From: Deltaproteobacteria bacterium | Lineage (GTDB): Bacteria > Desulfobacterota > Syntrophorhabdia > Syntrophorhabdales > Syntrophorhabdaceae | Length of the DNA stretch: 32,000 nt | Reading direction: 5' to 3' | Assembly (NCBI GenBank): GCA_029559435.1 | Contig: JAKQBZ010000189.1 | Location: forward strand, 5,103 to 37,102 | Notes under the pieces: generated by a model | Database searches by the model: none | Told to the model about the DNA's origin: nothing | The model's input: the letters and a program-made list of their open reading frames with translations, nothing else | Program-made: the position numbers and the translations under genes | Shown here: positions 7,222 to 22,088 of the stretch, one piece after another | How the letters are laid out: every line of letters starts with the position of its first letter | Numbering within the stretch: the stretch's first letter is position 1

Positions 7222-8057
7222 AACGCAAGGTCTTCCGTCATTTCCAGGGATTCTTCAAACGTCCACAGCACATCCCTGAGGTCGGCTTCGGACAGGCCAA
7301 GCATCTGCCAGGATTTTGGATTGACCGCCATAAGGGTGTGGTCGCCGGCAAAGCCGAACCCCCTTGCCCGCACCAGTATGTCTGAGAGATGGACAATTGC
7401 GGATTCAACAGGCGCACTCTTTGAAAGGTGCGGCTTGTGGTGGTGCTCAATGACATCGACAAGCTTTTGTGGAAAGCGCCACTTCTGTGCCATCCACGAG
7501 CCGACGCTTGCGTGGGTTGTGCCGTAATGAAGGCGCTCGGCTTCATATATGCCCATGCCGTTAATGTCTGCATCGTGCATCGCCTTCTCGTATTTATCGG
7601 GGAACCGAAGGATCAGCAGAACCTTGCCGATATCATGGAGAAGGCCGTCGATGGATGCCTCTTCGGGTTCTTTCAGCCCCTTTTTTTCGGCGATAAGCCT
7701 TGCTATGATGGCACAGCCGAGGGAATGTTCCCAGAGCCCGATCATGGTCTTTTGCATGAGATCAAAGACCGAGACGCCGAGAAGCAAGCCCTTGACAACG
7801 CTTAATCCCAGGAGGATTACCGCCTGATTTACCGATGATATCCTGCCGGGAAATCCGTAGACCGGCGAGTTGACCATTTTAAGAACTTTTGTTGTAAGGG
7901 CGGGATCGTTCGATATGAAGTTGCTGATCTCGTTCAGAGAGACCCTCGGGTTTTCGATGACCCCCAAAAGCCTTTTCAATACGCCCGGAATGGTCGGCAG
8001 CGCATTTATGTTCTCGACCTTGTCCCTGAGGTCCCCGATGCCGGCAACGCTACCCAT
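7218..8057 (-). CDS. HDOD-domain signalling protein
   Basis: INALPTIPGVLKRLLGVIENPRVSLNEISNFISNDPALTTKVLKMVNSPVYGFPGRISSVNQAVILLG and GLLHDIGKVLL. Overlaps the GGDEF gene start by 4 nt. Confidence 0.93.
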   Translation of the reverse strand: MGSVAGIGDLRDKVENINALPTIPGVLKRLLGVIENPRVSLNEISNFISNDPALTTKVLKMVNSPVYGFPGRISSVNQAVILLGLSVVKGLLLGVSVFDLMQKTMIGLWEHSLGCAIIARLIAEKKGLKEPEEASIDGLLHDIGKVLLILRFPDKYEKAMHDADINGMGIYEAERLHYGTTHASVGSWMAQKWRFPQKLVDVIEHHHKPHLSKSAPVESAIVHLSDILVRARGFGFAGDHTLMAVNPKSWQMLGLSEADLRDVLWTFEESLEMTEDLAL

Positions 8058-8346
8058 ATAAACCCTCTATATGCTCTCTCAGGGCCTTTTTTATGACATC
8101 CATATAGGGCTTCCCTTCCGCTGACTTGAAGCGCCTGTCGAGATCCGACAGCGCCTCCTCCTTTGATGTTGAAGGCGGGGAAATCCCCTGAACGAATATG
8201 CTGTCGGCATCCATGTCCCTGATCTTTTCTATAAGGGCCGCCGTCAGTTCCGTTCCCTCTCCGAGCAGCACCATTCCGCCCCTGTTTGTCACTGGCCTGA
8301 GCAGCTTCATTCCGGGCTTCAGCTTGTCAGGCGTAGTTTTCGGCAC
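8050..8346 (-). CDS. Conserved small protein (98 aa) resembling the module often N-terminal to HD-GYP proteins
   Basis: Best start is GTG at 8344-8346, preceded by AGGAGG on the minus strand: VPKTTPDKLKPGMKLLRPVTNRGGMVLLGEGTELTAALIEKIRDMDADSIFVQG. The track ORF extension to 8562 is not supported. Confidence 0.7.
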   Translation of the reverse strand: MPKTTPDKLKPGMKLLRPVTNRGGMVLLGEGTELTAALIEKIRDMDADSIFVQGISPPSTSKEEALSDLDRRFKSAEGKPYMDVIKKALREHIEGLYG

Positions 8347-8455
8347 AGCGCGCCCCTCCTGTTCAAACGTTTCCTTGGTCAGACATGAAACGTCTCTTAG
8401 ATATAATCGGCCAAAAACGCAATAGGTTAAGTTTTCAGTGATTTTTAGCAGATAT

Positions 8456-9607
8456 TTACAGCGCTGAAAGCCACGCCCCCAGCCTGTCGCACCCTTCTTT
8501 AAGCCTATCAATGCCCGTGGCGTAGGAAAAGCGGACATGAGAGCCGGCCCTGAAGGAGCCAAAATCGTATCCCGGGGTAAAGGCTACCCCGGCCTCGTCG
8601 AGGGCCCTCCCGGTAAAGGCCATGCTGTCAATCCCCCAGCGCTCGATCCCCGCGTATACGTAAAATGCCCCCTCAGGGGTTACGGGCACGCGGAACCCCA
8701 GGTCTTTTAGCCTCGGCACCACGAGGTCCCTCCTTTCCTCGTAGGTTTTCCTCATGCGGCCGAGCTCTTCCGCGTTGTCAAAGGCGCATATGGCCGCGTA
8801 CTGCGATATTGAAGGGGGAGAAATATATATATTCTGAGCGAATTTTTGTATCGGCCTTACGAGTTCGCGCGGGACCACCATCCACCCGAGCCTCCAGCCT
8901 GTCATGGCGTAGGTTTTTGAAAAGCCGTTTACAACGATAACGTTGTCGGATATGGCGAGGGCGCTTCTGGGCCTGTCCCCGTAAGCGAGGCCGAGATATA
9001 TCTCGTCAACGACAAGAAGCCTGTCCTCCGCGGAGAGGCTCTCGTAAAGCAGAGACAGCGTATGTTCCCTGTAAACGGTGCCCGTCGGGTTCGACGGGTT
9101 GGCAAGGACCAGAAGGTCCGGAAGGCGATCGAGGGCGCCGAGATGATTTTGCGTAACCTCGAAACCTGTCTCCTCCGATACCGGTATGGAGAGAATTTCA
9201 CAGTCAAGGAGAGATGCAATGTTTTTATAACAGGGATAACCGGGATCGGATATGCCAAGCGATTTCCCCCGTTCGAGCAGGGCGGCAAAGAGCAGCAAAA
9301 GCGCCCCCGAGGTCCCGTTTGTTATGACGATCCTTTCGGGCGGAATGGCTATTCCGTCTGTCTCCCGGTAGTGCCGGGAGACCCTCGCCCTCAGTTCCGG
9401 GAGGCCGAGGCTGTGGGTATAAAAGGTGCGGTCGCTCCTGATCGATCGGATCGCCTCTTCCTTGATTATGAAAGGGGTGGGAAAGTCCGGCTCGCCGACC
9501 TCCATGTGAACGATGTCCCTGCCGCTTGCCTCCATCTCTTTCGCTTTTTCAAGAAGCTCCATGACATAGAAAGGCGCGATGGCGCCGGTCCTTTTTGCAA
9601 CCCTCAT
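8456..9607 (-). CDS. PLP-dependent class I/II aminotransferase
   Basis: MEVGEPDFPTP, TNGTSGALLLLFAAL, ANPSNPTG, DEIYLGLAYG, VNGFSKTYAMTGWRLGW (PLP lysine), HVRFSYA. Confidence 0.94.
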   Translation of the reverse strand: MRVAKRTGAIAPFYVMELLEKAKEMEASGRDIVHMEVGEPDFPTPFIIKEEAIRSIRSDRTFYTHSLGLPELRARVSRHYRETDGIAIPPERIVITNGTSGALLLLFAALLERGKSLGISDPGYPCYKNIASLLDCEILSIPVSEETGFEVTQNHLGALDRLPDLLVLANPSNPTGTVYREHTLSLLYESLSAEDRLLVVDEIYLGLAYGDRPRSALAISDNVIVVNGFSKTYAMTGWRLGWMVVPRELVRPIQKFAQNIYISPPSISQYAAICAFDNAEELGRMRKTYEERRDLVVPRLKDLGFRVPVTPEGAFYVYAGIERWGIDSMAFTGRALDEAGVAFTPGYDFGSFRAGSHVRFSYATGIDRLKEGCDRLGAWLSAL

Positions 9608-9734
9608 AAGGCTCCTTCTTTCATGTGCGTCCGCGGCTTGCCGGGCGGAAAAAGATATGATTGAAATGTATCAAAAACGCGCTGTCCTGTCAATCCGGAT
9701 GATTCCCCGCAGCGTGCTGCGGAATGACGCTGTT

Positions 9735-9757
9735 CCCTCTCCGCTCGCGGGAGAGGG
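9735..9757. repeat. Short palindromic intergenic element / hairpin
   Basis: CCCTCTCC (9735-9742), loop, GGAGAGGG (9750-9757). An adjacent imperfect palindrome ATTCCCCGCAGC-GT-GCTGCGGAAT lies just upstream. Confidence 0.6.
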
Positions 9758-9775
9758 TAGGGTGAGGGGGCATAA

Positions 9776-11014
9776 TCATGCCGCTTCTATCTTCTGATGC
9801 GCATCATGTTTTTTTCTCACATAGAACTGAAAATAGCACATATTTGCAAGATAGAGAAAGGACAGGCAGAGAAACATCGCCCGGTAGCCCGTCAAGGAAA
9901 GGAGCATGCCCATAACGATCGGCCCGAGCGCCAGCCCGAGATCCGAGATCGCCCGCAAGGTCCCGACGGTGGCGCCGCTTGAAGAGCCTGCGTAATCAAG
10001 GGCATAGGCCATCGTTACCGGGATCAGGAACGAGATGCCCGCTCCCCAGAGCAGTCCCACAAAAATGAACGCAAAAAGGGACTTTGCAAAGAAGAGCATG
10101 GCAAGGACGGCTGCGCCCGTAAAGGTAAAGGTTAGAATGAGCCTTTCCTGGCTGAAAGAGCGCAAGACCCTCCCTCCCAGGGCCCGCCCCGCCATGATCA
10201 TTATTGCCGATGCGGAAAAGAAAAGCCCCGGATTTGCAACTCCGCGCTGTACCGCATAAATTGGGAGAAAGGCGATGATGGCCCCCCAGACGAAATACTG
10301 GAGGAAGCTGGAGATGGCAGGGACAACAACATTCCATTCAAGCAAGGCGTTGCCCCGGGCAAGATCGCCGATCTCGGACTTTTTGCTCCCCCGCCCCTTC
10401 AGCCTCCAGGCACACAGAAAGGCGCAGGCGGAGAGGCTTGCACAGGCGAGAAAGAGGATGACGAAGCTATAATGGCTAACGAAATATATGCTCAGAGAAG
10501 GGGCAATGGCCGTCGCAAGACTGGGCGCCAGCATTAAGTAGCTGATGCCCTGGCCCCGGCATGACAGCGGCAGCGCGCTCACGATAAAGACGAATATGGC
10601 GGTATCCACGCATGCAAGGGAAGCCCCCTGAACGAACCGCACGATCAGCAAGGGCCAAAACCGATGAAATACGGTAAAGGCAAGGAAAGCAAAGACAGAC
10701 AATGTGGCGCCGGCCATGATAACAGCCTTTTCTGAATACCGGAAAAGGATCCCGCCCACAAATGGCCTGCATGCCAATGATGCGACGCCAATGGTCCCGA
10801 CCAGTATGCCTATCTGCTTTTCGCTGGAGCCCAATTGCTCCAGATAGAGGGGTAGCGTGGGATAAAGGGCGGTATTGGTCGCCAGAAAAGCGAAATATGC
10901 AAGAAATCCGAGAATGAAATCGTGGTTCAGTATGTTCCGTAAGCTCAGCCGGGGTACGCTTTCTTCTTTTTGCACTGCATCACACCTCGACAAGCCGTTG
11001 CGAGAGAAAGACAT
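9776..11014 (-). CDS. Major facilitator superfamily transporter
   Basis: 412 aa polytopic protein with MFS-like TM pattern and a GGILFRYSEK loop. It starts 20 nt after the stop of the upstream MmgE/PrpD gene. Confidence 0.88.
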   Translation of the reverse strand: MSFSRNGLSRCDAVQKEESVPRLSLRNILNHDFILGFLAYFAFLATNTALYPTLPLYLEQLGSSEKQIGILVGTIGVASLACRPFVGGILFRYSEKAVIMAGATLSVFAFLAFTVFHRFWPLLIVRFVQGASLACVDTAIFVFIVSALPLSCRGQGISYLMLAPSLATAIAPSLSIYFVSHYSFVILFLACASLSACAFLCAWRLKGRGSKKSEIGDLARGNALLEWNVVVPAISSFLQYFVWGAIIAFLPIYAVQRGVANPGLFFSASAIMIMAGRALGGRVLRSFSQERLILTFTFTGAAVLAMLFFAKSLFAFIFVGLLWGAGISFLIPVTMAYALDYAGSSSGATVGTLRAISDLGLALGPIVMGMLLSLTGYRAMFLCLSFLYLANMCYFQFYVRKKHDAHQKIEAA

Positions 11015-11034
11015 GGAAGATCAGGGCACATGCA

Positions 11035-12432
11035 TCAGGTAAATGACAGGTTGGCCATCAGCTCGCCGATGTCTCCCAGCCGCTCGAGCTTAAAAACAGA
11101 ATTTACAATATGCTCCGATTGGCCTTTATCCAGGAACTGGAGTGCCGTTCCCTCAAACTTCTTCACCAATTCTTCATCGGTCATCGGGTTGAGGCTGTTC
11201 CCTTTCGGATAGTCGATCCGGCGCATGAGCTTCCTTCCGTCCTTGGTAGAGATATGGGCAATGCCGGCAAAAACAAAGTCGTCGAGGCCCGTGTTGGCCT
11301 CCACCGTTACTTTGTCGATGAGGCTTAGCACCACGGGGTTGATAAACCTGTCCGCGGTATACTGGCCCGGCCCGACCGTTCGGTCAACAATGGCAATTGC
11401 CGTTAGATAATAAAGGCTGTGATCCGCCGTCTCCTTGTCTGTCGGAAAGCGCTTCACGAAATCACCGGTATGGTTGGCGGTGCGCGTTGTCGCCTCTATC
11501 TTCACGCGCTCGATATCCTGTGGTTTTAGGTCATGCTCCCTGACAAGCTCCAGCAACGCATTGAGGGCCCCCTGGGTCGTATGCTCCGCGGCCAGGTTCT
11601 TCTGATGCACCTCAAGCAGGGCAGGCTGTTTTCTCGGCGCCGTCAATATCTCCAGATCGTACACGCCGCCCATCACGGTCTGTACAAAGCCCTTATTCCC
11701 CTCGATGATCCTTGCGGGGCCCGTAAAGCCTTTTTGTGCCAGCAGGGCGGCCATGATGCCTATCTGGGCCACCTGGGGCAGCCCGATGTTCTTGGTCATG
11801 TTGTATGGCTCGCCCTGTGTATCGATTATGTCGAGGGTAAGGCCATGCACCCCGGCTATGCCCGCAGCGTCCGCGAGCTGCTCCGCAGAGAGGCCGAGGA
11901 GCTTGCCGGCGGACAGGGCAACAACAAATCCTGCTATGGCAGAATAATGCCACCCCCTCGTGTGCAGGTTCTGGGCAAAGGAGGCGTCTATGAACCTCGC
12001 CGCCAGGTCATACGCAAGCGCTATTGCCGTTATGACGTCCTTGCCGTTTGCATGCCGGCGCTCCCCTACGGCCAGCGCCGCAGGGATCAGCTCGTTGGAA
12101 TGTATGCCGAACCTCAACGTGCCGTTCGTCCTGAAATAGGTATCGTTGTAATCAAGATAACGGGCCATCGCGCCGTTGGCAAGGGCGGCGTTCGCGCAGG
12201 GCACCTTGACCAGGCTGCCGATCATGGTTGACTCCCGGGCCCCGCCCTGGTCTTCCATGACAGAGCGGACGATCCTTCCGGCGTCGCTCTTGTGGGCGCC
12301 TATGGCGCATGCGAGCATATCCAGCACGACCCTTTTTGCTGCATGTATCTCCTGATCGCTCAATGTTGTATAAGAGAAGCCTTCCGTGTGCTGAGCAAGC
12401 TTCCTGCTCACGGACGCGGCATGTGTATCCAT
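11035..12432 (-). CDS. MmgE/PrpD family protein (paralog 1)
   Basis: LDMLACAIGAH, NGAMARYLDYNDTYF, ELIPAALAVGE, IAGVHGLT, ERVKIEATTR, and ADHSLYYLTAIAI motifs. Confidence 0.92.
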   Translation of the reverse strand: MDTHAASVSRKLAQHTEGFSYTTLSDQEIHAAKRVVLDMLACAIGAHKSDAGRIVRSVMEDQGGARESTMIGSLVKVPCANAALANGAMARYLDYNDTYFRTNGTLRFGIHSNELIPAALAVGERRHANGKDVITAIALAYDLAARFIDASFAQNLHTRGWHYSAIAGFVVALSAGKLLGLSAEQLADAAGIAGVHGLTLDIIDTQGEPYNMTKNIGLPQVAQIGIMAALLAQKGFTGPARIIEGNKGFVQTVMGGVYDLEILTAPRKQPALLEVHQKNLAAEHTTQGALNALLELVREHDLKPQDIERVKIEATTRTANHTGDFVKRFPTDKETADHSLYYLTAIAIVDRTVGPGQYTADRFINPVVLSLIDKVTVEANTGLDDFVFAGIAHISTKDGRKLMRRIDYPKGNSLNPMTDEELVKKFEGTALQFLDKGQSEHIVNSVFKLERLGDIGELMANLSFT

Positions 12433-12478
12433 AGGGCCCTCCTCGAGCTTATTCTTTATCCCTGTTGCCCGGACAATT

Positions 12479-13585
12479 TTATGGGCAGGCGGCGAGCTTC
12501 TTTGCGATCATGTCTCCCATCTCGCTGGTCCCCAGCTTTGTCATGCCGTCGCTCATGATGTCATAGGTGCGGTAGCCCTCTTTCAGCACCTGGTCTACCG
12601 TATTTTCGATCGCCTGAGCCTCTTTTGTCAAGCCAAAGGAGTAGCGAAGCATCATGGCCCCGCTCAGGATCGTAGCTATGGGGTTGATCATGTTAAGGCC
12701 GGTGCGGCGGGGTGCGCTGCCGTGTATCGGCTCGTAGAGGCCGGCCAGTTTGCCGCCGCCGGACGGTATGCCGGCCAGGCTTGCCGACGGCATCATGCCG
12801 AGGGACCCGGCGAGCATGGATGCTTCGTCGCTCAGGATATCGCCGAAGAGGTTTTCTGTGACGATCACGTCAAAGTCGGCGGGGCGCTGGATGAAGCTCA
12901 TGGCGCAGTAGTCGACAAGGGCATGTTCGACCTCGATGTCCGGGTATTCGGCGGCCACTTCAATGGCGACCTCTCTCCAGAGATCGGAGCACTTCAGGAT
13001 CTGGAACTTATCAACAGAGGTCAGTTTTTTTCTTCGAACCCTTGCCAGCTCGAAGCCGACGCGGACGATGCGCCTGATCTCCTCTTCCGAATACCTCATG
13101 GAATCGACGGCGCTTCGCCCTTCCGGAGAGCGTATCAATTCTTTCGGCTCGCCGAAGTAGATCCCTCCGGTCAGCTCGCGGACGATGATGAAGTCGACGT
13201 TGCTGACGATCTCCGGCTTGAGGTGGGAGGTGCTGATAACTGACGGAAAGAGCTTGACCGGCCTTAAGTTGGCAAAAAGGCCCATCTCCTTCCGGAGCCT
13301 GATGATGCCGTAGCCACGCTCCGGACGCTCTTTCAGGCCGGGGACCTCGTACCTGGGTTCGCCCACTGCACCGAAGAGGACGGCATCGCTTGCCTTGCAA
13401 AGATCGACCGTTGCCTTCGGCAGCGCCTCGCCGATCTTCTCATAGGCCGCCGCCCCTATCATGCCGTCGCTGAACCGAAACTCATGACCGAACTTTGAAC
13501 CGACAGCCTTGAGAACCTTTACTCCTTCCGCAACGATCTCAGGCCCGACGCCATCTCCAGGCAGCACAGCAATAGACAATTTCAT
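12479..13585 (-). CDS. leuB: 3-isopropylmalate dehydrogenase-like (isocitrate/isopropylmalate dehydrogenase family), divergent substrate region
   Basis: IAVLPGDGVGPEIVAEGVKVL, RLRKEMGLFANLRPVKLFP, VRELTGGIYFGEPKEL, NLFGDILSDEASMLAGSLGMMPSASL, YEPIHGSAP. Confidence 0.82.
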   Translation of the reverse strand: MKLSIAVLPGDGVGPEIVAEGVKVLKAVGSKFGHEFRFSDGMIGAAAYEKIGEALPKATVDLCKASDAVLFGAVGEPRYEVPGLKERPERGYGIIRLRKEMGLFANLRPVKLFPSVISTSHLKPEIVSNVDFIIVRELTGGIYFGEPKELIRSPEGRSAVDSMRYSEEEIRRIVRVGFELARVRRKKLTSVDKFQILKCSDLWREVAIEVAAEYPDIEVEHALVDYCAMSFIQRPADFDVIVTENLFGDILSDEASMLAGSLGMMPSASLAGIPSGGGKLAGLYEPIHGSAPRRTGLNMINPIATILSGAMMLRYSFGLTKEAQAIENTVDQVLKEGYRTYDIMSDGMTKLGTSEMGDMIAKKLAACP

Positions 13586-13634
13586 GACCCCTCCTCCTTT
13601 GGTAATATAATTTTAACTTGTTTTATGTTTCCGC

Positions 13635-14132
13635 CTAAGCATTTTTCATCTGTTTTAACAGCGGTTCAATGCCGCCGCATTCCAGAACCCTGAGCATTTC
13701 GTCAGGAAAAGCCTGAAAATCGAGGACCTTGCCGGTTGTATGGTTTATCACCTTCCGATCGGCAAGGCTTGCTTCCGCCTCGTCGCCATCGTTGCCGAGC
13801 GAAGCTGCGCCCGGGCAGATAATGGCGGGAAGACCGATCGCAATAGAGTTTCTGTAGAATATCCGGGCAAAGGATTCCGCCACGACAGCCCCGATCCCAA
13901 GCGCCTTAAGGGCGGCGGGAGCCGTCTCCCTGCTGGAGCCGCACCCGAAGTTGCGGCCCGCCACGATCATGTCCCCGGGGCTTGCCTTTTGTGCAAATTC
14001 AGGACGCACCTCCTCGAAGGCGTGCCCTTTCAACTCGTCCATGGGGAGATTGATATACTTCCCTGACGTCATGACATCGGTATCAACGTTGTCGCCAAAC
14101 TTCCAGACCCGGCCTTTTATTTTGCTGATCAT
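13635..14132 (-). CDS. leuD: 3-isopropylmalate/aconitase-family dehydratase small subunit
   Basis: GRVWKFGDNVDTDVMTSGKYI, IVAGRNFGCGSSRETAPAALKALGIGAVVAESFARIFYRN. Confidence 0.88.
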   Translation of the reverse strand: MISKIKGRVWKFGDNVDTDVMTSGKYINLPMDELKGHAFEEVRPEFAQKASPGDMIVAGRNFGCGSSRETAPAALKALGIGAVVAESFARIFYRNSIAIGLPAIICPGAASLGNDGDEAEASLADRKVINHTTGKVLDFQAFPDEMLRVLECGGIEPLLKQMKNA

Positions 14133-14144
14133 GGCATTCCTCCC

Positions 14145-15398
14145 CTATAGCCCTCTCGGATCGGTGATTTTGCCTGTTATTGCCGAAGCGGCAACGGTTG
14201 CAGGAGACGCCAGGTAAAGCTCCGATTCAGGGCTGCCCATTCTGCCTTTAAAATTTCTGTTGGTTGTAGCGATGCAGACCTCCCCCGAAGCAAGCAGGCC
14301 CATGTGCCCGCCCATGCAGGGGCCGCAGCCGGCATTGCAGATAATGGCGCCCGACTCGGACAGGCGCATTATGATGCCTTCCCGAACGGCGTCCCGATAC
14401 ACCTCCCACGACGCCGGGATCACAAGCATCCGGACATCGGGGTGGACCTTCCTCCCCGCCATCACCCCGGCGGCCATCCTCAGGTCCTCCAGCCTTGCAT
14501 TGGTACAGGAACCGAGGACTGCCTGGTGGATCTTTATATCACCAACCTTCGAGACCGGTTTTACGTTGTCCACTGAAAAGGGGGAAGCAACCTGGGGCTC
14601 CAATGTGGAGACTTCTTCATGATATACGGCTTCATAGGAGGCATCGCTGTCAGCGGCAACAACGCCGAAATGCCGCTGAGCCCTCTCCATGAGATAGTCT
14701 GTTGTCTTTTTATCGGTTTCAAAAAAGGCGAACTTTGCCCCTATCTCCGCAGCCATGTTGCACATGGTTATCCGGCTGGCGATGCTCAAATCATTGCATG
14801 CCGTGCCCGCGAACTCTACGGCCTTGTACTGGGCCGCTTCGACAGAGTACTTGCCTGCAAGGCTCAGGATAACGTCCTTCGAAGACACCCTCGGAGGGAG
14901 GCTGCCTTCGATGATGAATTTGATGGTCTCGGGCACTTTGAACCAGAGCTTGCCCGTCGTAAAGACATAGGCCATCTCTGAATGGCCGATCCCTGAAGCG
15001 GCCGCACCAAGGGCGCCGTAGCTGATCGTGTGGGAATCGGCCCCAACAACCAGCATGCCCGGCAGAATATGCCCTTTCTCGATGAGCACCTGGTGGCACA
15101 CGCCGGCGTTCTGGCCGTAAAAATGCTTTATGCCAAGCTTTTTTACGGCAGACCTGATGAAATTGTACGTTTCCGCATCCCTCACCGTGGGCGGAGGGTT
15201 CCAGTGGTCAAGGACGCATACTATCCTGTCCGGGTCCCAGGCCTTGTCCACGCCTGCCCTGAACAGGACCTCGCATACCGGCCCCATGGAATCGTGGACC
15301 ATTGCCAGATCTATATCTGCCATTACGTACTCGCCCGGCCTTACGGCCTCTTTTCCTGAGGCCCTCGCCAGGATCTTTTGTGCTGCCGTTGCCCCCAT
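14145..15398 (-). CDS. leuC: 3-isopropylmalate/aconitase-family dehydratase large subunit
   Basis: VGADSHTISYGALGAAASGIGHSEMA, LGSCTNARLEDL, CNAGCGPCMGGHMG, TTNRNFKGRMG. The Fe-S cysteines are present. Confidence 0.9.
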   Translation of the reverse strand: MGATAAQKILARASGKEAVRPGEYVMADIDLAMVHDSMGPVCEVLFRAGVDKAWDPDRIVCVLDHWNPPPTVRDAETYNFIRSAVKKLGIKHFYGQNAGVCHQVLIEKGHILPGMLVVGADSHTISYGALGAAASGIGHSEMAYVFTTGKLWFKVPETIKFIIEGSLPPRVSSKDVILSLAGKYSVEAAQYKAVEFAGTACNDLSIASRITMCNMAAEIGAKFAFFETDKKTTDYLMERAQRHFGVVAADSDASYEAVYHEEVSTLEPQVASPFSVDNVKPVSKVGDIKIHQAVLGSCTNARLEDLRMAAGVMAGRKVHPDVRMLVIPASWEVYRDAVREGIIMRLSESGAIICNAGCGPCMGGHMGLLASGEVCIATTNRNFKGRMGSPESELYLASPATVAASAITGKITDPRGL

Positions 15399-15469
15399 GC
15401 GCCCGCCTCCTTTCTTGAACTATAAAACGCATGTTCCGCCTTGTTCGTTTCTGGTATTGTTGCCCATTT

Positions 15470-16858
15470 CTAAGGCGGCGACTTCCGCAAGATCTCAAAA
15501 AACCTCTCCAGGCCGTCCGTCCTGTCCAGGCCCTGTATGATTGAAAGCAATTCATCCGTCTCGCTGCCCTCAAAGACAGAGCCGCTCAATTGCCAGAACT
15601 TGGCGATCAGCTCGTTTTGGCTCATTGGGTTTTCCGGCTCACCTTTTGGGACGCCCACCTTGTGGGCGTAAGTTTCCCCATTGTTGAGCGTGATAACGAT
15701 CTCGGTCAAAAGGTCAACCGCCCCATGGCCCCATTGAGCGGGGTGTTCAAAACGTATGCATGGTATCAGCTTTTGCCACGAGGCCTTCTGAACTTCCTGG
15801 TCGGTGAAATCACGCATGGTGATCTCGCCGTTCATGATCGACTTCGCTATGCAGTACTCCATGCTGAATTTTGCCTCATAGGCCGTTTTAGGCCTGTGCG
15901 CCGTGGTCATGCCCAACACGAGGGGATTGACCCTGCTTATGATCGAAGCGACCTGTTCCGGCCGGATGGCGTATCTTCGCTTCAGATACAATATGGCGTC
16001 GATGCTCGGATGCGTAGCCCGGCAGCAAGGGTAAGGCTTGAACCCCAATCCGGTCGATATGATCCACCATTCCTTGCCCAGGTCATCGACAGGCATCATA
16101 TCCGGGGAGGCCCGCCCCCCGCTGAAGACCTCGCAGAAACTGGTCTTTCCGTCAAGGACCGACTGGTTGCCCGTCAATCCGCCCTGGGCAAGCGTAGCCG
16201 CGATCACGCCGTTGCGCGCCGCGTTGCCCGCATGCATCGTCTTGGTCATGGTCTCCACGTTCTTTTTTAAGCCGCTTGCCAGCGATGAGGCAATGCCGAG
16301 GGCTGAGCGGGCCCGGGAAGCATCAAGCTGCAATGCCTTCGCGCAGGCGGCAGCCGCTCCAAGGGTGCCCAGTATCGGCGTAGGATACCAGCCGATCGCA
16401 GGGATAGACTGGCCGATAGCGGCCCCGATGCGATAGGTTGCCTCCATGCCGGCCACATACGCAAGAAGGAGGTCCCGCCCCGACAGCTTAAGCCTTTCCA
16501 CAACGGCGAGCGCTGCGGGCAGAATGCACGTTGTGGGGTGAATGTTGTAGCGGGCAGCGTTCGCAAAGGTATCATCGAAATCAAGGGCATGGCCCATTGA
16601 CCCGTTTATGAGGGACGCCAGCTCTGCCGTGGTCATAAGCCCCTGGCAAATGCCGCTCGCTTCCCCCTTTGCGGCAAGCCCTTTCGCATACTGTGCAAGA
16701 ATTGCGACCACCGGTTCCGAAGCCCCTGCGATGGCAACGCCAAGCCAGTCGAGCACCCCCTGCTTTGCAATAAGGATCGCTTCAGGCGGGATGTCTTTGT
16801 AGGCGGCGCCTACGATAAATCCGGCGATCCTTTCAGTATTGGAATTTTCATCGATCAT
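15470..16858 (-). CDS. MmgE/PrpD family protein (more divergent member)
   Basis: GVLDWLGVAIAGASEPV, INGSMGHALDFDDTF, HPTTCILPAALAV, KPYPCCRATHPSIDAI. The start at 16858 (MIDENSN...) has an RBS-like AAAGGA; the track ORF extends to 16888. Confidence 0.88.
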   Translation of the reverse strand: MIDENSNTERIAGFIVGAAYKDIPPEAILIAKQGVLDWLGVAIAGASEPVVAILAQYAKGLAAKGEASGICQGLMTTAELASLINGSMGHALDFDDTFANAARYNIHPTTCILPAALAVVERLKLSGRDLLLAYVAGMEATYRIGAAIGQSIPAIGWYPTPILGTLGAAAACAKALQLDASRARSALGIASSLASGLKKNVETMTKTMHAGNAARNGVIAATLAQGGLTGNQSVLDGKTSFCEVFSGGRASPDMMPVDDLGKEWWIISTGLGFKPYPCCRATHPSIDAILYLKRRYAIRPEQVASIISRVNPLVLGMTTAHRPKTAYEAKFSMEYCIAKSIMNGEITMRDFTDQEVQKASWQKLIPCIRFEHPAQWGHGAVDLLTEIVITLNNGETYAHKVGVPKGEPENPMSQNELIAKFWQLSGSVFEGSETDELLSIIQGLDRTDGLERFFEILRKSPP

Positions 16859-16871
16859 TTGACATCCTTTA

Positions 16872-18269
16872 TCAGCCCTGTTTTTCAAATACCATGAGCC
16901 GGCTCAATTCCTTAATGTCACTCGCTTTGTCCAGAGAGAAGACCGTCTGCATAATTCTGTCTATGCGCCCCGTCGTCATGTAGGGCGCGGCCATATCGGT
17001 AAATTTGGCTGCCAGCTCTTCATCGCTCATCGGGTTCTTGGGGTGCCCCTTTGCAAAATCGATCTGGCAAGAATACTTCCGCCCCTGCTTTGTCGCTATC
17101 TCTGATGTCCCTGCCGTGAGGAACAGGCGGTCAAGGCGGGGATCCCCTTCGAAAACAACCTTATCGGTCAGCTCGCGCACCCGCGGGTCGGAATATCTTT
17201 CGGGGCTGAATTGGGCAGGCCCCAGCTGCCGCTCCAGGATTGCCATTGCCGTGAGATAGTAGGAGCTGTGGTCGGCAGATTCCTTGTTGACGGGATATTT
17301 TTTTGCCGGGTCGCCTGTGTGGCGAGCGCAGCGAGTGCTTGCGGCGATCCGGACCGCCGCCACGTCCTCGGGCCTTATATCGTTCTCTTTTACCAGCTGA
17401 AGGGTTGCCGACAGGTGCCCCTGGGCCGAGTAATCAGAGATTATCGACTTGATGCATGCCTCCATTACCGTGTACCGCCGCCCTGGATCCACAAGCCTGA
17501 GCGGTTCATACTCTCCTGAGAGGACCGTTGCAATAAAGCCGTCGTGCCCCTCAAAAATATTTTCAGGGCCCGTGAACCCCTGGCGGGCCATCATTGCGGC
17601 CAGAATGCCCCCATACGCCATTGCCGGGAAGCGCAGGTTCTTGGTCATGGTATATTCCTCTCCCGAGGCGTCGAGAATGCCCAGCACCGCATGCGTGCTG
17701 CCGGATATCCCCGCTGCGTTCACCACCTGCCCTGCGTCAAGCCCCAGGATGCGGCCTGCCACAAAAGGCATGATATAGGCGCCCCTTGTGTCCCCGTTCC
17801 AGCCTCGCTGCTCCATCTCCCGCCCAACGATCCCCTCCAGGAAACGGTTTGAAAGATCATAGCCCAGAACGATCGCCGCAATCGTTTCGAGCCCTGAAAG
17901 TCCCTGCCTTTCTGCCAGGGCCAGAATGGGCGGGATGACCTCGCTCGGATGATATCCGACGCGGAAGCTGCCTTCTGCCTCTATAACAACCGCGTCGTTA
18001 TAATCGAGGTACCTCGTCATTACGCCATTTGCCAATGTCGCATTAAGGCAGGACGTTTTCACGCCGCTGCCCACAATTGTTGCTTCCTGCGGGCCGGCCA
18101 GCTCGGCGATCAATTTGTGAAGCGACCTGTTCGCATCGCTTGCATAGCCGCCGATAGCGCACCCCAGGGTATCCAATATCAAGCGCTCTGCTTGATGAAT
18201 AACATGAGGAGGAATGTCCCGGGCATCGAAGCTTAGGACCTCCTCAGAAAGCTGTCTTGACAAGCTCAT
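16872..18269 (-). CDS. MmgE/PrpD family protein (paralog 2)
   Basis: Co-linear with the 11035-12432 protein: LDTLGCAIGG, NGVMTRYLDYNDAV, EVIPPILALAE, TGDPAKKYPVNKESADHSSYYLTAMAI. Confidence 0.92.
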   Translation of the reverse strand: MSLSRQLSEEVLSFDARDIPPHVIHQAERLILDTLGCAIGGYASDANRSLHKLIAELAGPQEATIVGSGVKTSCLNATLANGVMTRYLDYNDAVVIEAEGSFRVGYHPSEVIPPILALAERQGLSGLETIAAIVLGYDLSNRFLEGIVGREMEQRGWNGDTRGAYIMPFVAGRILGLDAGQVVNAAGISGSTHAVLGILDASGEEYTMTKNLRFPAMAYGGILAAMMARQGFTGPENIFEGHDGFIATVLSGEYEPLRLVDPGRRYTVMEACIKSIISDYSAQGHLSATLQLVKENDIRPEDVAAVRIAASTRCARHTGDPAKKYPVNKESADHSSYYLTAMAILERQLGPAQFSPERYSDPRVRELTDKVVFEGDPRLDRLFLTAGTSEIATKQGRKYSCQIDFAKGHPKNPMSDEELAAKFTDMAAPYMTTGRIDRIMQTVFSLDKASDIKELSRLMVFEKQG

Positions 18270-18430
18270 TTTTTCACTCCTTCTATCAGGTATTTCCTCG
18301 CCTTAAGCTTAGGCACAAGCTGCGCGCCGGCACGGCCTGGTCATTTTCTCCCGGAATGCCATACCCTTGCATGTCCTTTATCCACCTTTGGCCCCCTTGC
18401 GTCTTTCCCGTGGTCGCCGATATGAGTTAA

Positions 18431-18448
18431 ATATATTGAATAATATAT
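18431..18448. promoter_or_regulatory. Candidate operator palindrome
   Basis: ATATATT-gaat-AATATAT, perfect 7-bp arms, immediately downstream of the predicted minus-strand -10. Confidence 0.4.
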
Positions 18449-18454
18449 CAAATG

Positions 18455-18483
18455 AAAATACTAGACGGGAGAAAGCTTGTCAA
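18455..18483 (-). promoter_or_regulatory. Candidate sigma70 promoter for the minus-strand MmgE/PrpD-Leu cluster
   Basis: On the minus strand: TTGACA (18478-18483), 17-nt spacer, TATTTT (18455-18460). Confidence 0.5.
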
Positions 18484-18589
18484 GGAATATTTTGTACGGC
18501 TGATTACGGCCATTGCTTTAATACGGCAACGTAAATGTGTTTTTATTAAACGCGCCCCCCTCGATTCTCCATGAACACTTCCAATTGCA

Positions 18590-18609
18590 AAGCGCCGTAA
18601 GCGGCGCTT
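18590..18609. other. GC-rich hairpin in the divergent intergenic region
   Basis: AAGCGCCG-taag-CGGCGCTT, perfect 8-bp stem with 4-nt loop; no following T-run. Confidence 0.55.
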
Positions 18610-18754
18610 GCGGATTAGCGTCGATTCACAAAAACAACTTTCTTGTTTGCCGGCTCGGGCGCATTATGCCTCATCGTGCGGCCGCTCATCCCCGTCTCCG
18701 GGCAGGTCCATTAATAAAATATATCTAAAAATATATTAATAACCGCAAAAAAAC

Positions 18755-18783
18755 TTGACAGGCTCGAACGATACGTGTATGTA
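18755..18783 (+). promoter_or_regulatory. Candidate sigma70 promoter for the TRAP operon
   Basis: TTGACA (18755-18760), 17-nt spacer, TATGTA (18778-18783). The -10 is weak. Confidence 0.4.
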
Positions 18784-18832
18784 TAGACAATACAGAATTT
18801 TAAGAAATTAATACGAAAGGAGGGTTCTTTCC

Positions 18833-19864
18833 ATGAAAAAAATGATGAGGTGTCTTGCAATAGGCCTGTTTGCAGCCGTCTGGCTAATGTACGGCATTCC
18901 AGCCAGCGGGGCTGAGCAAACTTACAAGATACGCCTGACCTTATACTGGCCCCCTTCACATCACCTGGTAAAGACCGCCAACTTTTTCTCTGACCGCGTG
19001 AAGGAACACACCCAGGGCAGGGTCGTCGTAGAAGTCTATCCGTCAGGCCAGCTGTATTCCCAGGCAGAGTCGTTAAAGGCGGTCTCCATGGGCAGCATAG
19101 AGATGTCTGACGAGTTTATGGGGAAGGCCGAGACCATCGATCCCCTGTGGGGCGTGGTCCAGACGAACATGTTCGTTTTGACCGACTACCAGATGCTCTG
19201 GAGATACTTTGATCACCCCAAGTTCCGCGAAATAATCGGGGGCCTGTATATCAACAAGATGAAGGTCAAGCCTCTTTTTATCGTTGCCAGCGGGAGCTAC
19301 ATGATGCTGACAAACTCCAAAAACCCGATCAGCAAGCCGGCCGATCTTAGTAAAAAGCTGATCCGCGTGCCTTCAAAGTCCATTATGGAGATGATCAACC
19401 TTTGGGGCGGCAAGGGCGTGATCATGAGCTCGGGTGAGCAGATCATGGCAATGCAGGTGGGCACGGTGGATGGATCATGGACGAGCCTTGGGGATGGCGT
19501 CTCCCGCCAGATCTGGGACGTACAGAAGTACGCGATGCTCTTTCAATCCTGCGTCACCCACCCCTTCGTTATCAACATGAGGTTCTTCAACAGCCTGCCC
19601 CAGGACCTCCAAAAGGGAATAGAGAAGGCCGCGCAGGAAACCCAGGACCACGGGAGGAAGGAGCTGGAGAAGATAGAGGCGGAACAGGTAAAGGTCCTGA
19701 AGTCCAAAATGACCGTACACGCCTTAACTGCCAAAGAAACGGAGGCATGGGCACAGACGATCCAGCCTTTGATCGACAAGTGGGTGAAGGCAACGGGGGA
19801 AAAAGGGAAGGCGTTGCGGGATATAATGGTGCAGGTGAGAAAGGATGTCCTGGTCGGGAAATGA
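18833..19864 (+). CDS. dctP: TRAP transporter substrate-binding protein (DctP family)
   Basis: Signal peptide, then GRVVVEVYPSGQLYSQAESLKAVSMGSIEM, followed by small and large TRAP membrane subunits. RBS AAAGGAGGG. Confidence 0.92.
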   Translation: MKKMMRCLAIGLFAAVWLMYGIPASGAEQTYKIRLTLYWPPSHHLVKTANFFSDRVKEHTQGRVVVEVYPSGQLYSQAESLKAVSMGSIEMSDEFMGKAETIDPLWGVVQTNMFVLTDYQMLWRYFDHPKFREIIGGLYINKMKVKPLFIVASGSYMMLTNSKNPISKPADLSKKLIRVPSKSIMEMINLWGGKGVIMSSGEQIMAMQVGTVDGSWTSLGDGVSRQIWDVQKYAMLFQSCVTHPFVINMRFFNSLPQDLQKGIEKAAQETQDHGRKELEKIEAEQVKVLKSKMTVHALTAKETEAWAQTIQPLIDKWVKATGEKGKALRDIMVQVRKDVLVGK

Positions 19865-19878
19865 TCCCGCGTGGATGA

Positions 19879-19917
19879 GCATTTAGTTCCGGAACGCTAT
19901 GCTCCGGAACTAAATGC
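19879..19917 (+). other. Intercistronic stem-loop between dctP and dctQ
   Basis: GCATTTAGTTCCGGA (19879-19893) / 9-nt loop / TCCGGAACTAAATGC (19903-19917), perfect 15-bp stem. Confidence 0.85.
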
Positions 19918-19948
19918 CTTATAGCGACTTTTGCTGAGGGGTGCGCAC

Positions 19949-20470
19949 ATGAGATCTGATAGCGCCTTGTTTATCCTGATGGACCGGCTGAGCGCCCTGG
20001 GGGCTGCGGCCGCCTCCCTGGGCTACGCTATGATGGCCGCGGGAGTATTTGTGTCCGTTATCTTCCGGTATGTTTTTGTCAGCCCCATGGGGTGGACCGA
20101 TGAAGTAACGCGATTCCTGCTGGTCTGGTGCGTCATGCTCGGCATGGCATATACGCTGCAGCAGGGACGCCACATCAGGGTAACGACTTTGGTCAGGAAC
20201 TTTTCTCCGAGGGTCCAGAGGGCATTAGAATTTATCGGCGACCTGATCGCATTGGCCGTATTGTGCGTTTTCGTTTTTAAGAGCTACCAATTTTCGGCTT
20301 TTACGAAAGATATTGGAGAGGTTTCGCAGGGGTCCCTGGCCATCCCGCTCTGGTGTGCCAATTTGGCCCTCCCGATCGGAGGGTGCCTGTTCGTGCTGCA
20401 GTATCTTGTGAAGGTATTGAGGACCCTCATGGGTGTCAGCAGGGAAAACGAGGACCGTGCACATCATTAG
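19949..20470 (+). CDS. dctQ: TRAP transporter small permease subunit (DctQ)
   Basis: Four TM segments with RYVFVSPMGWTDEVTRFLLVWCVMLGMAYTLQQGRHIRV. ATG 19949 preferred over TTG 19931. Confidence 0.9.
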   Translation: MRSDSALFILMDRLSALGAAAASLGYAMMAAGVFVSVIFRYVFVSPMGWTDEVTRFLLVWCVMLGMAYTLQQGRHIRVTTLVRNFSPRVQRALEFIGDLIALAVLCVFVFKSYQFSAFTKDIGEVSQGSLAIPLWCANLALPIGGCLFVLQYLVKVLRTLMGVSRENEDRAHH

Positions 20471-20512
20471 CGCTGCGAAACTGTAAATTTTATTGTCGAG
20501 GAGACAGACAGC

Positions 20513-21784
20513 ATGACGGAAGGTATCTGGGTTTTCCCGTTGCTCCTTGTTCTTTTATTGTTCGGTCTTCCTATTGGCATCGCGCTCTTTACGTCCGCCC
20601 TCTTAGCTTTGTTGGTCAACAACTTTGACGTCATGAACATGGCCCACACCATGTACCAGACGTTGGATAGCTTCCTTCTGTCCTCTCTTCCGCTCTTTAT
20701 GCTTATGGCGAACATCCTCTTCCGCGCGAATATCGGAGAAGACCTTTTCGAGCTCCTGAACGTCTTCCTTCGAAGGATACGGGGCGGCCTGTCGCTTTCA
20801 GCCCTTGCGGCCTGCGGCCTGTTTGCTGCGATATCCGGATCCAGCGCGGCGACGGTTCTGACGATCGGCATTGTTGCGATCCCCGCCATGTTGTCCCGTG
20901 GATATGACAGAAAATTGGTGTTCGGGGCCTTGGGGTCGGGAGGATTGCTGGGCGTATTGATCCCTCCGAGCGGGTGGATGATCATCTATGGCGACATCGC
21001 AGAGGTCTCGGTGGGAAAATTGTTCCTTGCAGGGGTGATCCCGGGCCTGATACTTCTGGGGATCTTTCTGATCGTTGCCTATATTCAGTCCATAAGGACC
21101 CGTATGCAACCCATGGAGCCCGCCACCTGGCCTGAAAAAAAGGCAGCCCTGCGACGGGCCTTTCCGGCGATCTGGCTGCCGCCCATCATACTTGGCGGCA
21201 TTTATTCCGGCATCTTCACGCCAACGGAATCCGCCGCCGTCGGCTGCGTGTATGCCGCCGCCATCTCGGTAAGGCGGCTGAAGATAAAAGATTTCTGGCC
21301 CATATTCAAAGACACCGTCGTTGCAACGTCCATGCTCTTTCTCGTGATCAAGACAGCGGTGGTCTTTGGCTCATCGCTGACCATGATGCAGATCCCTCAA
21401 AAGCTGGCTGCGATCGTTGTACAGGCGGGCCTGACGCCTATCCCGTTCATCATTGTGATGTCCCTGGTCTATTTTGTCCTTGGATTGTTTGTTGACGGGA
21501 TATGCATGCTGCTTTTGACCCTCCCTATTATCCTGCCCATTCTCGGCGCTTTGAACATAGACCTCATATGGTTCTGCATCATCGTGGTGGTCAACATGGA
21601 GATCGGGTGCATCAGCCCGCCCTTCGGCGTCAACCTCTTCGTCCTGATGGGCATCGTGAAAGACGCCGAGCTGCCCGAGATCCTGCACGGGCTGCTGCCG
21701 TTCTTCCTCGGCCTGGTAGCTTTCCTGATCATTGTTATCAGCTTCCCGGCCCTGTCAACCTGGCTGCCTGCCTTTCTAAAGTAG
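20513..21784 (+). CDS. dctM: TRAP transporter large permease subunit (DctM)
   Basis: LALLVNNFDVMNMAHTMYQTLDSFLLSSLPLFMLMANIL, GLFAAISGSSAATVLTIG, GSGGLLGVLIPPS, FTPTESAAVG, CISPPFGVNLFVL. Confidence 0.95.
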   Translation: MTEGIWVFPLLLVLLLFGLPIGIALFTSALLALLVNNFDVMNMAHTMYQTLDSFLLSSLPLFMLMANILFRANIGEDLFELLNVFLRRIRGGLSLSALAACGLFAAISGSSAATVLTIGIVAIPAMLSRGYDRKLVFGALGSGGLLGVLIPPSGWMIIYGDIAEVSVGKLFLAGVIPGLILLGIFLIVAYIQSIRTRMQPMEPATWPEKKAALRRAFPAIWLPPIILGGIYSGIFTPTESAAVGCVYAAAISVRRLKIKDFWPIFKDTVVATSMLFLVIKTAVVFGSSLTMMQIPQKLAAIVVQAGLTPIPFIIVMSLVYFVLGLFVDGICMLLLTLPIILPILGALNIDLIWFCIIVVVNMEIGCISPPFGVNLFVLMGIVKDAELPEILHGLLPFFLGLVAFLIIVISFPALSTWLPAFLK

Positions 21785-22088
21785 CGCCTTGCAGCGCGGC
21801 GGCCCGCTGATCAAGCCCGCCCCTAAGAAGCGGATCAACTGCAGGCAGTTCAGCCCTATCACGCCCTGGCAAAGGATGGCCACGGTGTCGCCTATCGAGA
21901 TGCCGGCTGCCGCCACGTGCACGAACGTGGCGAAAAGGGGCTCCAAAGCAGAGAGCGCATTCCCCGCAGGGTATCATTCTCCCCCGGAAAACCCTGTCTC
22001 CCGCCTTAAGGCCGTTGACGCCCGCGCCCGCCATAAGGCCTTGAAGGTATGCCCGGTGGGCCTCGAGGCTCTGCAGGGGCGGCCGCAA
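21785..22088 (-). pseudogene. Degraded zinc-dependent (MDR) alcohol dehydrogenase fragment
   Basis: Minus strand encodes ...GAGVNGLKAGDRVFRG..MIPCGECALC, then a +1 frame change to FATFVHVAAAGISIGDTVAILCQGVIGLNCLQLIRFLGAG, matching the zinc lobe and Rossmann start of MDR enzymes with the intervening region missing. Confidence 0.6.

Follow-up and report, generated by a model that had tools for sequence, protein, structure and literature searches.

Divergent TRAP transporter and MmgE/PrpD–LeuCDB-like genes in Syntrophorhabdaceae: a probable accessory regulon for an imported substituted di- or tricarboxylate

What are genes resembling those for isopropylmalate isomerase (LeuC and LeuD) and isopropylmalate dehydrogenase (LeuB) doing among three genes of the MmgE/PrpD superfamily, back to back with a tripartite ATP-independent periplasmic (TRAP) transporter? 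This question is raised by a 32,000-nucleotide (nt) stretch of contig JAKQBZ010000189.1 (assembly GCA_029559435.1) from an uncultured, syntrophic deltaproteobacterium of the Syntrophorhabdaceae; the whole stretch is referred to below as the window. Sequence comparisons indicated that the cluster is probably an accessory regulon for the use of an imported substituted C4-dicarboxylate or tricarboxylate, and not for leucine synthesis. The features concerned, with protein lengths in amino acids (aa), are the following.

16872–18269, minus strand: PrpD1, MmgE/PrpD family, 465 aa (Pfam PF03972 and PF19305)
15470–16858, minus strand: PrpD2, MmgE/PrpD family, 462 aa from the ATG of the public gene caller (PF03972 and PF19305); alternatively a 472-aa open reading frame (ORF) with a TTG start at 16888
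14145–15398, minus strand: LeuC-like large subunit, aconitase-family hydro-lyase, 417 aa, with GSCTN and CGPC cysteine motifs
13635–14132, minus strand: LeuD-like small subunit, 165 aa (passes TIGR02087)
12479–13585, minus strand: LeuB-like beta-decarboxylating dehydrogenase (Iso_dh), 368 aa (passes TIGR00169)
11035–12432, minus strand: PrpD3, paralog of PrpD1 (PF03972 and PF19305)
9776–10975 (or to 11014), minus strand: major facilitator superfamily (MFS) transporter, MFS_1 family, 399 aa, final gene of the packed run (PF07690)
8456–9607, minus strand: class I/II aminotransferase (PF00155)
18430–18448: operator copy 1, ATATATT-N5-ATATATT
18718–18736: operator copy 2, ATATATT-N5-ATATATT
18833–19864, plus strand: DctP, TRAP solute-binding protein with a signal-peptide-like N-terminus (PF03480, NF037995)
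19949–20470 (or from 19931), plus strand: DctQ, TRAP small membrane subunit, 173 aa (PF04290)
20513–21784, plus strand: DctM, TRAP large membrane subunit (PF06808; TIGR00786 above cut-off)

With the start codons chosen by public gene callers, the minus-strand genes run in the order PrpD1, PrpD2, LeuC, LeuD, LeuB, PrpD3 and MFS, with intergenic gaps of 13, 71, 12, 49, 46 and 59 nt; between PrpD1 and the divergent dctP there is a spacer of 563 nt. The Pfam domain scores of the cluster proteins were all far above the cut-offs, and DctP, DctQ and DctM are all present and adjacent according to Pfam and NCBIfam. The initial annotation, which had been made from the letters of the stretch, described a tightly packed minus-strand gene set, a complete TRAP transporter divergent from it, and no adjacent leuA. 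All of this was borne out, the first point by the ORFs and by Pfam/NCBIfam matches (gaps of 12–71 nt) and the second by PF03480, PF04290 and PF06808. As for the third, no HMGL/LeuA-type synthase was detected when the large ORFs of the 32-kb window were scanned, nor in the public gene calls with Pfam assignments about 10 kb either side of PrpD1. Similarly, neither prpC (methylcitrate synthase) nor prpB (methylisocitrate lyase) was found among the scanned window ORFs or the public gene calls. Two features had been missed: the aminotransferase gene, which lies downstream of the MFS gene at a distance of 168 nt, and the operator that occurs twice in the spacer. Across window positions 9001–22000, which hold the cluster and the TRAP genes, G+C content was 0.54–0.59, falling to 0.48 at the spacer, compared to 0.48–0.53 in most flanking 1-kb windows; this profile is compatible with an acquired island.

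The motif ATATATT-N5-ATATATT occurs at only two places in the window, both within the spacer (4 overlapping matches vs 0.01 expected). Copy 1 lies just downstream of a promoter-like site on the minus strand (TTGACA at 18483–18478, 17-nt spacing, TATTTT ending at 18455), and copy 2 is located about 20 nt upstream of the TTGACA box (18755–18760) that precedes dctP. Both copies are invariant in four related loci (L007, L008, L009 and L089), while much of the intervening spacer has diverged or been replaced. In a further locus, L177, both copies are kept at the corresponding promoters, with copy 2 at the same position relative to dctP though the two units are no longer divergent. The claim that a single divergent control region is shared with dctPQM was thus supported, in that the same operator stands at both promoters and is kept in relatives. 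No other finding argues as strongly as this shared operator for a joint action of importer and enzymes.

With regard to the protein that might bind there, a GntR/FCD gene is present just past dctM in L009, where it is preceded by the operator motif in palindromic form; a GntR/FCD regulator 52% identical to the L009 protein is encoded in L177, and a 48-residue GntR/FCD remnant persists in the spacer of L089/L090. To judge by these positions, GntR/FCD control may be exerted through the operator, and any such regulator of the window's cluster would be encoded outside the window. Of the conserved leucine regulation that the initial annotation had set against its own model, nothing was seen: an Rfam scan of the window returned no match at all, and hence no T-box, leucine leader or riboswitch.

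The enzymes themselves depart from ordinary leucine synthesis in a consistent manner. The LeuB-like protein passes the TIGR00169 equivalog model (456.7 bits vs a cut-off of 353.2) and is 63–65% identical to ordinary LeuB of Dehalococcoidia. Its isopropyl-pocket loop carries a two-residue Gly-Tyr insertion after position 88 (RPERGYGIIRLRK vs canonical RPEDG--LLALRK), the loop pattern of the clade being GYG[ILF]IRLRK. This insertion was present in 38 of the 121 sequences compared; it is fixed in these clade members and absent from the 83 canonical ones, and in a neighbour-joining tree all 38 GYG-type LeuB proteins were monophyletic, with no canonical sequence inside. Four further changes, L91I, Arg at position 92, A186F (beside the catalytic Lys185) and V108L, are likewise fixed in the clade and absent from canonical LeuB, and the LeuB-like protein lacks the canonical alkyl-pocket motifs E87-x-G-L90-L91-x-L-R94 and K185-A-N-V188. 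Equivalents of the catalytic and substrate-carboxylate residues (Thermus R94, R104, R132, Y139, K185, D217, D241, D245) are invariant or near-invariant in the clade alignment. Thermus numbering was taken from a Thermus sequence, with which eight catalytic or substrate-binding landmarks and four further pocket residues agreed. In isopropylmalate dehydrogenase (IPMDH), residues 90/91 and 188 set the size of the alkyl group accepted, and an Arg in the same loop of homoisocitrate dehydrogenase selects homoisocitrate. We conclude from these comparisons that the LeuB-like protein is a derived paralog of LeuB whose pocket has been reshaped. When metagenomes were scanned with the alignment of the LeuB clade, there were among the matches listed only canonical LeuB loci and none with the GYG motif; these loci were used only as a reference for canonical LeuD loops.

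A parallel picture emerged for the two hydro-lyase subunits. LeuC, whose Fe-S cysteines are intact, passes the subfamily models NF001614, TIGR01343 and TIGR02086 and fails the equivalog TIGR02083 (478.1 bits vs 610.65). LeuD passes the LeuD/DmdB subfamily model TIGR02087, fails the equivalog TIGR02084 (152 vs 245.85 bits) and also fails the HacB homoaconitase equivalogs (180.2 vs 230 and 133.7 vs 230 bits). Its specificity loop is altered (DTDVMTSGKYINLP; MTSGKYINL): where the solved small subunits of the Methanocaldococcus jannaschii isopropylmalate isomerase and of homoaconitase have YLVY and YLRT, respectively, YINL is found here. About 10 type-II LeuD copies that adjoin canonical LeuB, and for which the loop was captured, showed IIPARYLN[TVS] or a near variant (canonical DTDxIIPARYLN). 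This contrasted with every LeuD adjoining a GYG-type LeuB (L087, L089, L171, L172, L177), all of which carry an SGKY[ILM]xL loop. Moreover, LeuC copies beside GYG-type LeuB were 69–86% identical to that of the window, as against 30–49% for copies beside canonical LeuB. This identity split, together with the SGKY loop beside every GYG-type LeuB, indicates that LeuC, LeuD and LeuB travel as one specialised module.

The module, hereafter LeuCDB(GYG), was found in varied surroundings: with a PrpD gene upstream and a convergent PrpD gene plus an EamA transporter gene, directly after tctCBA, and after an IclR regulator gene. In L087 (8179–13965), next to an ISL3 fragment, the genes that follow it encode an amidase of the isochorismatase family and a hydantoinase/dihydropyrimidinase-like amidohydrolase; this arrangement has the look of a pathway in which a cyclic imide or amide is converted, by way of a cis-enedioate, to a 2-oxoacid. 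In L085, LeuB(GYG) occurs without LeuC and LeuD, together with an ATP-binding cassette (ABC) transporter, two short-chain dehydrogenases/reductases, enzymes of the isochorismatase-family amidase and hydantoinase-like types, and orthologs of PrpD2 (48%) and PrpD1 (63%); one more LeuB(GYG) copy is isolated. None of the eight contexts recovered for the LeuCDB(GYG) type contains a leuA-type or ilv-type gene. The idea that these LeuBCD proteins serve something other than leucine synthesis, put forward in the initial annotation, is indirectly supported by this absence, as well as by the shared operator, the GntR/FCD genes of relatives and the changed LeuB and LeuD loops.

The three PrpD proteins were also unlike any characterised member of their family. 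All carry PF03972 and PF19305, in agreement with the claim of three superfamily members side by side, but they are not equivalent: PrpD1 and PrpD3 are paralogs with 43% identity, PrpD2 is only about 25–26% identical to either, and PrpD3 has decayed in one lineage. Against the PrpD equivalogs TIGR02330, NF006943 and NF042438 their best scores were 42–84 bits, compared to cut-offs of 458–950. All three are nearer to iminodisuccinate (IDS) epimerase and cis-aconitate decarboxylase (CAD) than to 2-methylcitrate dehydratase, PrpD2 being the paralog closest to IDS epimerase (199 bits) and CAD (180 bits). Characterised MmgE/PrpD enzymes, for which four activities are listed, all act on a 1,4-dicarboxylate backbone (PMC12290011). 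The active site of IDS epimerase includes H85, D88, H99, H150, K198 and K266, with Y145 as the second base (PMC12290011); alignment to this enzyme (PDB 2HP3) placed the following residues at H85/D88/H99/Y145/H150/K198/K266.

PrpD1: R86, D89, H107, E153, N158, K210, K274
PrpD2: H, D, H, P153, Y158, K, K
PrpD3: R, D, H, H157, H162, K, K

The two-base site of IDS epimerase and methylsuccinate isomerase is therefore absent from PrpD1, PrpD2 and PrpD3. Nor is the CAD site present (His103, His159, Lys207, Lys272 and His277, a list drawn in part from PMC12290011), given that PrpD2 has Tyr158 at His159 and Cys at His277, and that PrpD1 has Asn158. The PrpD1 pattern, including His107, Lys210 and Lys274, was invariant in 22 orthologs. 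These residues match no characterised activity, but the His/Lys/Lys core for the proposed enolate chemistry on a succinate backbone is kept in all three; PrpD1 and PrpD3 represent a new active-site type, and the three proteins fall into two uncharacterised subfamilies.

Orthologs of PrpD1 (53–61% identical) are common, and about 24 species representatives hold them in a different conserved cluster, in the order cyclic amidohydrolase (allantoinase/dihydropyrimidinase-like), GntR/UTRA, PrpD, succinyl-CoA-synthetase-like beta and alpha subunits, CitE-like lyase, second PrpD, flavocytochrome-c/TcuA-like flavoprotein and ABC binding protein. This apparently uncharacterised cluster is present in Desulfobacterota, Spirochaetota, Myxococcota and Acidobacteriota (e.g., L016 7449–19235, also L011, L014, L015, L023–L031, L040, L048 and others). 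As PrpD1 orthologs occur in two kinds of cluster, the product of PrpD1 can evidently pass either to a ligase/lyase pair or to LeuCD/LeuB, and these two destinations would fit a 2-substituted malate or maleate intermediate. A separate observation is the striking expansion of PrpD1-like paralogs in the groundwater Deltaproteobacteria metagenome-assembled genome (MAG) JACPSE01 (L034, L036–L039, L050, L055), which holds many copies, 36–50% identical and often three to four in tandem.

How far does the arrangement extend? Identical or near-identical proteins are labelled as belonging to Syntrophorhabdaceae or Syntrophorhabdus MAGs, with contigs from digester and bioreactor metagenomes. In a scan that included one genome per species, the whole arrangement was found only in three Syntrophorhabdaceae-type MAGs (L007–L009; PrpD1 88–95% identical). 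Across Syntrophorhabdaceae lineages the cluster forms one conserved unit whose proteins are 71–97% identical. An apparent loss of LeuB in L007 was rejected, the gap being a run of 100 N. In the more distant lineage represented by L089/L090 (LeuB 71%, LeuC 78%), the TRAP genes followed by PrpD1-PrpD2-LeuC-LeuD-LeuB-MFS-aminotransferase are kept, with different genes beyond TRAP. There, PrpD3 has shrunk to 195 + 44 aa (PrpD3 remnants at 11192–11913, and the GntR/FCD remnant in the TRAP/PrpD1 spacer at 4919–5062), and this reduction, along with the remnant of a regulator, suggests gene decay within the cluster. In L177 (DctP 80%, PrpD1 83%), the TRAP and PrpD1-PrpD2-LeuCDB units are co-directional, with a GntR/FCD gene and an IS110 transposase gene between dctM and PrpD1 (13249–15499); that the linkage outlasts this rearrangement and insertion counts against a meaningless adjacency. 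Conservation of gene order across genomes, a check proposed at the outset, was thus seen within Syntrophorhabdaceae (L007–L009, L089/L090, L177) but not for the full order beyond this one family, PrpD1 orthologs elsewhere lying in the other cluster described above.

Hints on the ligand of the transporter are indirect. DctP is far from every solved solute-binding protein (best match 86 bits) and its family is small, with 27 matches. An ortholog with 51% identity lies in L175 (96–10819) among genes for GntR/FCD, Iso_dh, DctPQM, a second Iso_dh, a GntR fragment, a four-subunit 2-oxoacid:ferredoxin oxidoreductase and an RraA-like protein, which looks like a compact unit leading from a hydroxy-dicarboxylate to an acyl-CoA. 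Another, in L176, adjoins genes for a CitE-like lyase and a family III coenzyme A (CoA) transferase, and the context of the third ortholog at 51–52% was uninformative. Two of the three contexts consequently point to an involvement of enzymes that may act on hydroxy- or alkyl-dicarboxylates.

Based on these results, we propose the following scheme, in the direction and step order, and with the roles for individual PrpD proteins, that we infer from the genes. The TRAP system would import the acid, and MmgE/PrpD enolate chemistry on the succinate backbone would dehydrate, isomerise or decarboxylate it to a 2-substituted cis-enedioate (a substituted maleate), or else correct its stereochemistry. 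The LeuCD-like Fe-S hydro-lyase would then add water to give a (2R)-3-substituted malate, which the LeuB-like enzyme would oxidise and decarboxylate to a 2-oxoacid; the latter could be transaminated by the adjacent aminotransferase or oxidised elsewhere. As for the substrate, C5 branched dicarboxylates (citramalate, itaconate, mesaconate, citraconate), leading to 2-oxobutyrate, are our first but still rather doubtful choice; they fit every gene, and likewise the contexts in which PrpD1 orthologs (ligase/lyase) and DctP orthologs (CoA transferase/lyase) occur. Tricarboxylates (aconitate or homocitrate analogues) rank second and are unlikely; with them, the TctCBA context and the Arg newly acquired in the loop of LeuB would agree.

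A more far-reaching version of the scheme, offered tentatively as a possibility well short of an even chance, is a CoA-independent route in a syntrophic anaerobe. In such a route, new MmgE/PrpD activities (PrpD1 of the Arg/Glu/Asn type, and a CAD/IDS-epimerase relative without the key residues) would feed a neofunctionalised isopropylmalate isomerase and dehydrogenase, so that branched C5/C6 di- or tricarboxylates (itaconate, citramalate, mesaconate or aconitate-like) would yield 2-oxobutyrate or a related 2-oxoacid. The decarboxylations, and the pairing of an importer with the MFS transporter, might aid energy conservation.

Several observations weigh against a catabolic regulon of this kind. 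Three LeuCDB(GYG) contexts have no PrpD genes, which means that consecutive action of PrpD and LeuCD is not a necessity. Only within one family is the full gene order seen, and unrelated neighbours (HDOD, GGDEF) are syntenic there too. The window contains neither a GntR gene nor a remnant of one. The MFS gene could signal the export of a product, and hence biosynthesis, and the LeuB-like protein, given its pass of TIGR00169 and its identity to ordinary LeuB, may retain IPMDH activity.

The last of these points leads to the plainest alternative, in which LeuC, LeuD and LeuB are the sole copies for housekeeping leucine or isoleucine synthesis, simply lie amid PrpD genes to which they are unrelated, and depend on a leuA or cimA at another site. 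The intact LeuB catalytic residues and LeuC Fe-S cysteines, and the TIGR00169 match, would be expected in that case. Nevertheless, we consider it very improbable: the alkyl-recognition loops of both LeuB and LeuD are changed in a clade-specific way, LeuC and LeuD fail the equivalog models, no leuA- or ilv-type gene accompanies the module in the eight contexts, the operator is common to the TRAP importer and a GntR/FCD regulator accompanies it in relatives, Rfam shows no leader or T-box, and insertion sequence (IS) elements adjoin several copies. Biosynthesis of another sort, in which a 2-oxoacid is elongated or tailored towards a non-proteinogenic amino acid or a metallophore precursor, finished by the aminotransferase and exported by the MFS protein, would account for these two downstream genes and for the best, though weak, match of the MFS protein, a model of opine-metallophore exporters. 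Chain elongation by LeuCD/LeuB paralogs is indeed known from other pathways, such as those for coenzyme B and homophenylalanine. Such a pathway would, however, call for a condensing enzyme, and none of the LeuA/NifV/AksA type was found among the ORFs scanned in the window or in any related context; furthermore, the MFS match of 72.9 bits is far under the cut-off of 235, the module is linked to high-affinity importers (TRAP, tripartite tricarboxylate and ABC transporters) and to GntR/FCD or IclR regulators, and the aminotransferase gene, after its 168-nt gap, seemingly has its own promoter. We regard this biosynthetic role as distinctly unlikely.

Another view is that the cluster is the acid-level tail of a cyclic imide, ureide or amide pathway, in which ring-opening amidohydrolases, with genes elsewhere, set free a substituted maleate, malate or aminosuccinate, PrpD eliminates the substituent and LeuCD/LeuB convert the remainder to a 2-oxoacid. 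Relatives of LeuB(GYG), PrpD1 and PrpD2 do occur beside hydantoinase/dihydropyrimidinase-like and isochorismatase-family amidases (L085, L087), and the widespread PrpD1-ortholog cluster begins with a cyclic amidohydrolase. The Syntrophorhabdaceae cluster, in contrast, has no amidohydrolase, the only isochorismatase-family gene of the window (27892–28452) lies some 6 kb off behind unrelated genes and is a weak YcaC match, and a TRAP importer implies that a carboxylate is already on the imported molecule, all of which makes such a tail an unlikely account. Finally, the adjacency could be meaningless, with TRAP, PrpD and LeuCDB independent and found together only through the close kinship of the genomes compared. 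The restriction of the full order to one family, with syntenic unrelated flanks, is what this would predict. It is nonetheless hard to credit and in our view extremely improbable, since an identical operator at both promoters has survived the divergence of the spacer, the linkage has in L177 outlived both a rearrangement and the insertion of an IS element, PrpD-LeuCDB recurs between other flanking genes, and orthologs of PrpD1, PrpD2 and LeuB(GYG) are found together in L085.

The extent of the cluster on the side of the MFS gene is less clear-cut. The best NCBIfam match of the aminotransferase was PRK08960, under the cut-off, and the gene has a promoter-like site of its own at 9693–9665 in addition to the gap that sets it off from the MFS gene. 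Its synteny is kept in L089, yet so is that of unrelated neighbours: a run comprising genes for a GGDEF protein, an HDOD/HD protein and a small ORF without a Pfam match (6283–8562), on the same strand after the aminotransferase gene, is also syntenic there. For this reason, synteny alone cannot prove that the aminotransferase belongs to the cluster; its membership is uncertain, and a last step from the 2-oxoacid to an amino acid is possible. The MFS protein gave weak matches to exporter models only, all far under the cut-offs.

Further away on the same side (96–4724) are hisB- and hisH-like genes, ResB/CcsA-type cytochrome c biogenesis genes and a gene for a GATase_5 protein, that is, ordinary housekeeping genes unrelated to the cluster. 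On the other side, the isochorismatase-family gene was considered as a pathway member and dropped, on account of its distance, its position behind glnA, PilZ and others, and the weakness of its match. A sensor histidine kinase gene with sCache_3_3 and PAS domains (29884–31785) adjoins a 413-aa ORF without a Pfam match (28583–29824), and no response regulator was seen in the window.

A literature search returned no description of this gene arrangement, nor of leucine metabolism in Syntrophorhabdus. What appears to be new is the combination of genes, the two uncharacterised PrpD active-site types and the recruited LeuCDB clade, the parts all being of known enzyme and transporter kinds. Most MmgE/PrpD proteins are without a known function, and the locus gives at least two new subfamilies a genetic frame that includes an importer, an operator, a likely regulator and downstream enzymes with predictable chemistry. 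It also documents a LeuCD/LeuB clade that has probably been recruited away from leucine synthesis; automated names such as '3-isopropylmalate dehydrogenase/dehydratase' may wrongly credit leucine biosynthesis in reconstructions of anaerobic digesters. Should the substrate prove to be an itaconate- or citramalate-type acid, the pathway would offer a way of degrading it that, unlike the known one, does without CoA.

The proposed pathway shares elements with several known systems and coincides with none. As in the 2-methylcitrate cycle, an MmgE/PrpD enzyme would be followed by an aconitase-family Fe-S hydro-lyase, and a hydroxyl would shift along a substituted succinate via a cis-alkene. The resemblance ends with the PrpD equivalog scores (≤84 bits vs 458–950) and the lack of prpC and prpB in the window; in addition, the hydro-lyase is of the two-subunit LeuCD type, and LeuB-type oxidative decarboxylation would replace the lyase. 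Leucine synthesis and the citramalate route to isoleucine use the same folds and catalytic residues, and the LeuB-like protein passes TIGR00169, so that the expected chemistry would run from an alkylmaleate through a 3-alkylmalate to a 2-oxoacid. In contrast to the enzymes of those pathways, the LeuC and LeuD of the cluster fail the equivalogs, the loops are altered in a monophyletic clade, no synthase was found adjacent, and the genes are linked to importers and catabolic-type regulators. Homoaconitase HacAB differs by its YLRT loop, with an Arg for the distal carboxylate, in place of the YINL of the cluster's LeuD, in line with the failed HacB equivalogs.

A precedent for a LeuCD-like two-subunit hydro-lyase in catabolism is the dimethylmaleate hydratase DmdAB of nicotinate fermentation, the likeness being that the LeuD described here passes the LeuD/DmdB subfamily model TIGR02087, and that model alone. 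DmdAB is followed by a lyase, and its product is a tertiary alcohol, which cannot be a substrate of LeuB. Among proteins of solved structure, IDS epimerase and CAD/IRG1 come closest to each of the three PrpD proteins, with the catalytic His and both Lys residues conserved; the differences are that PrpD2 has other residues in place of Tyr145 and His150 (IDS epimerase) and of His159 and His277 (CAD), and PrpD1 in place of His85, Tyr145 and His150 (IDS epimerase). Lastly, the itaconate/methylsuccinate cluster of pseudomonads also employs an MmgE/PrpD enzyme in the catabolism of branched C5 dicarboxylates, a methylsuccinate isomerase that acts on the free acid (PMC12290011). That pathway runs via CoA esters, with a transferase, a hydratase and a lyase, and its isomerase keeps the His/Tyr two-base site, which is replaced by Arg/Glu/Asn in PrpD1 and by Pro/Tyr in PrpD2.

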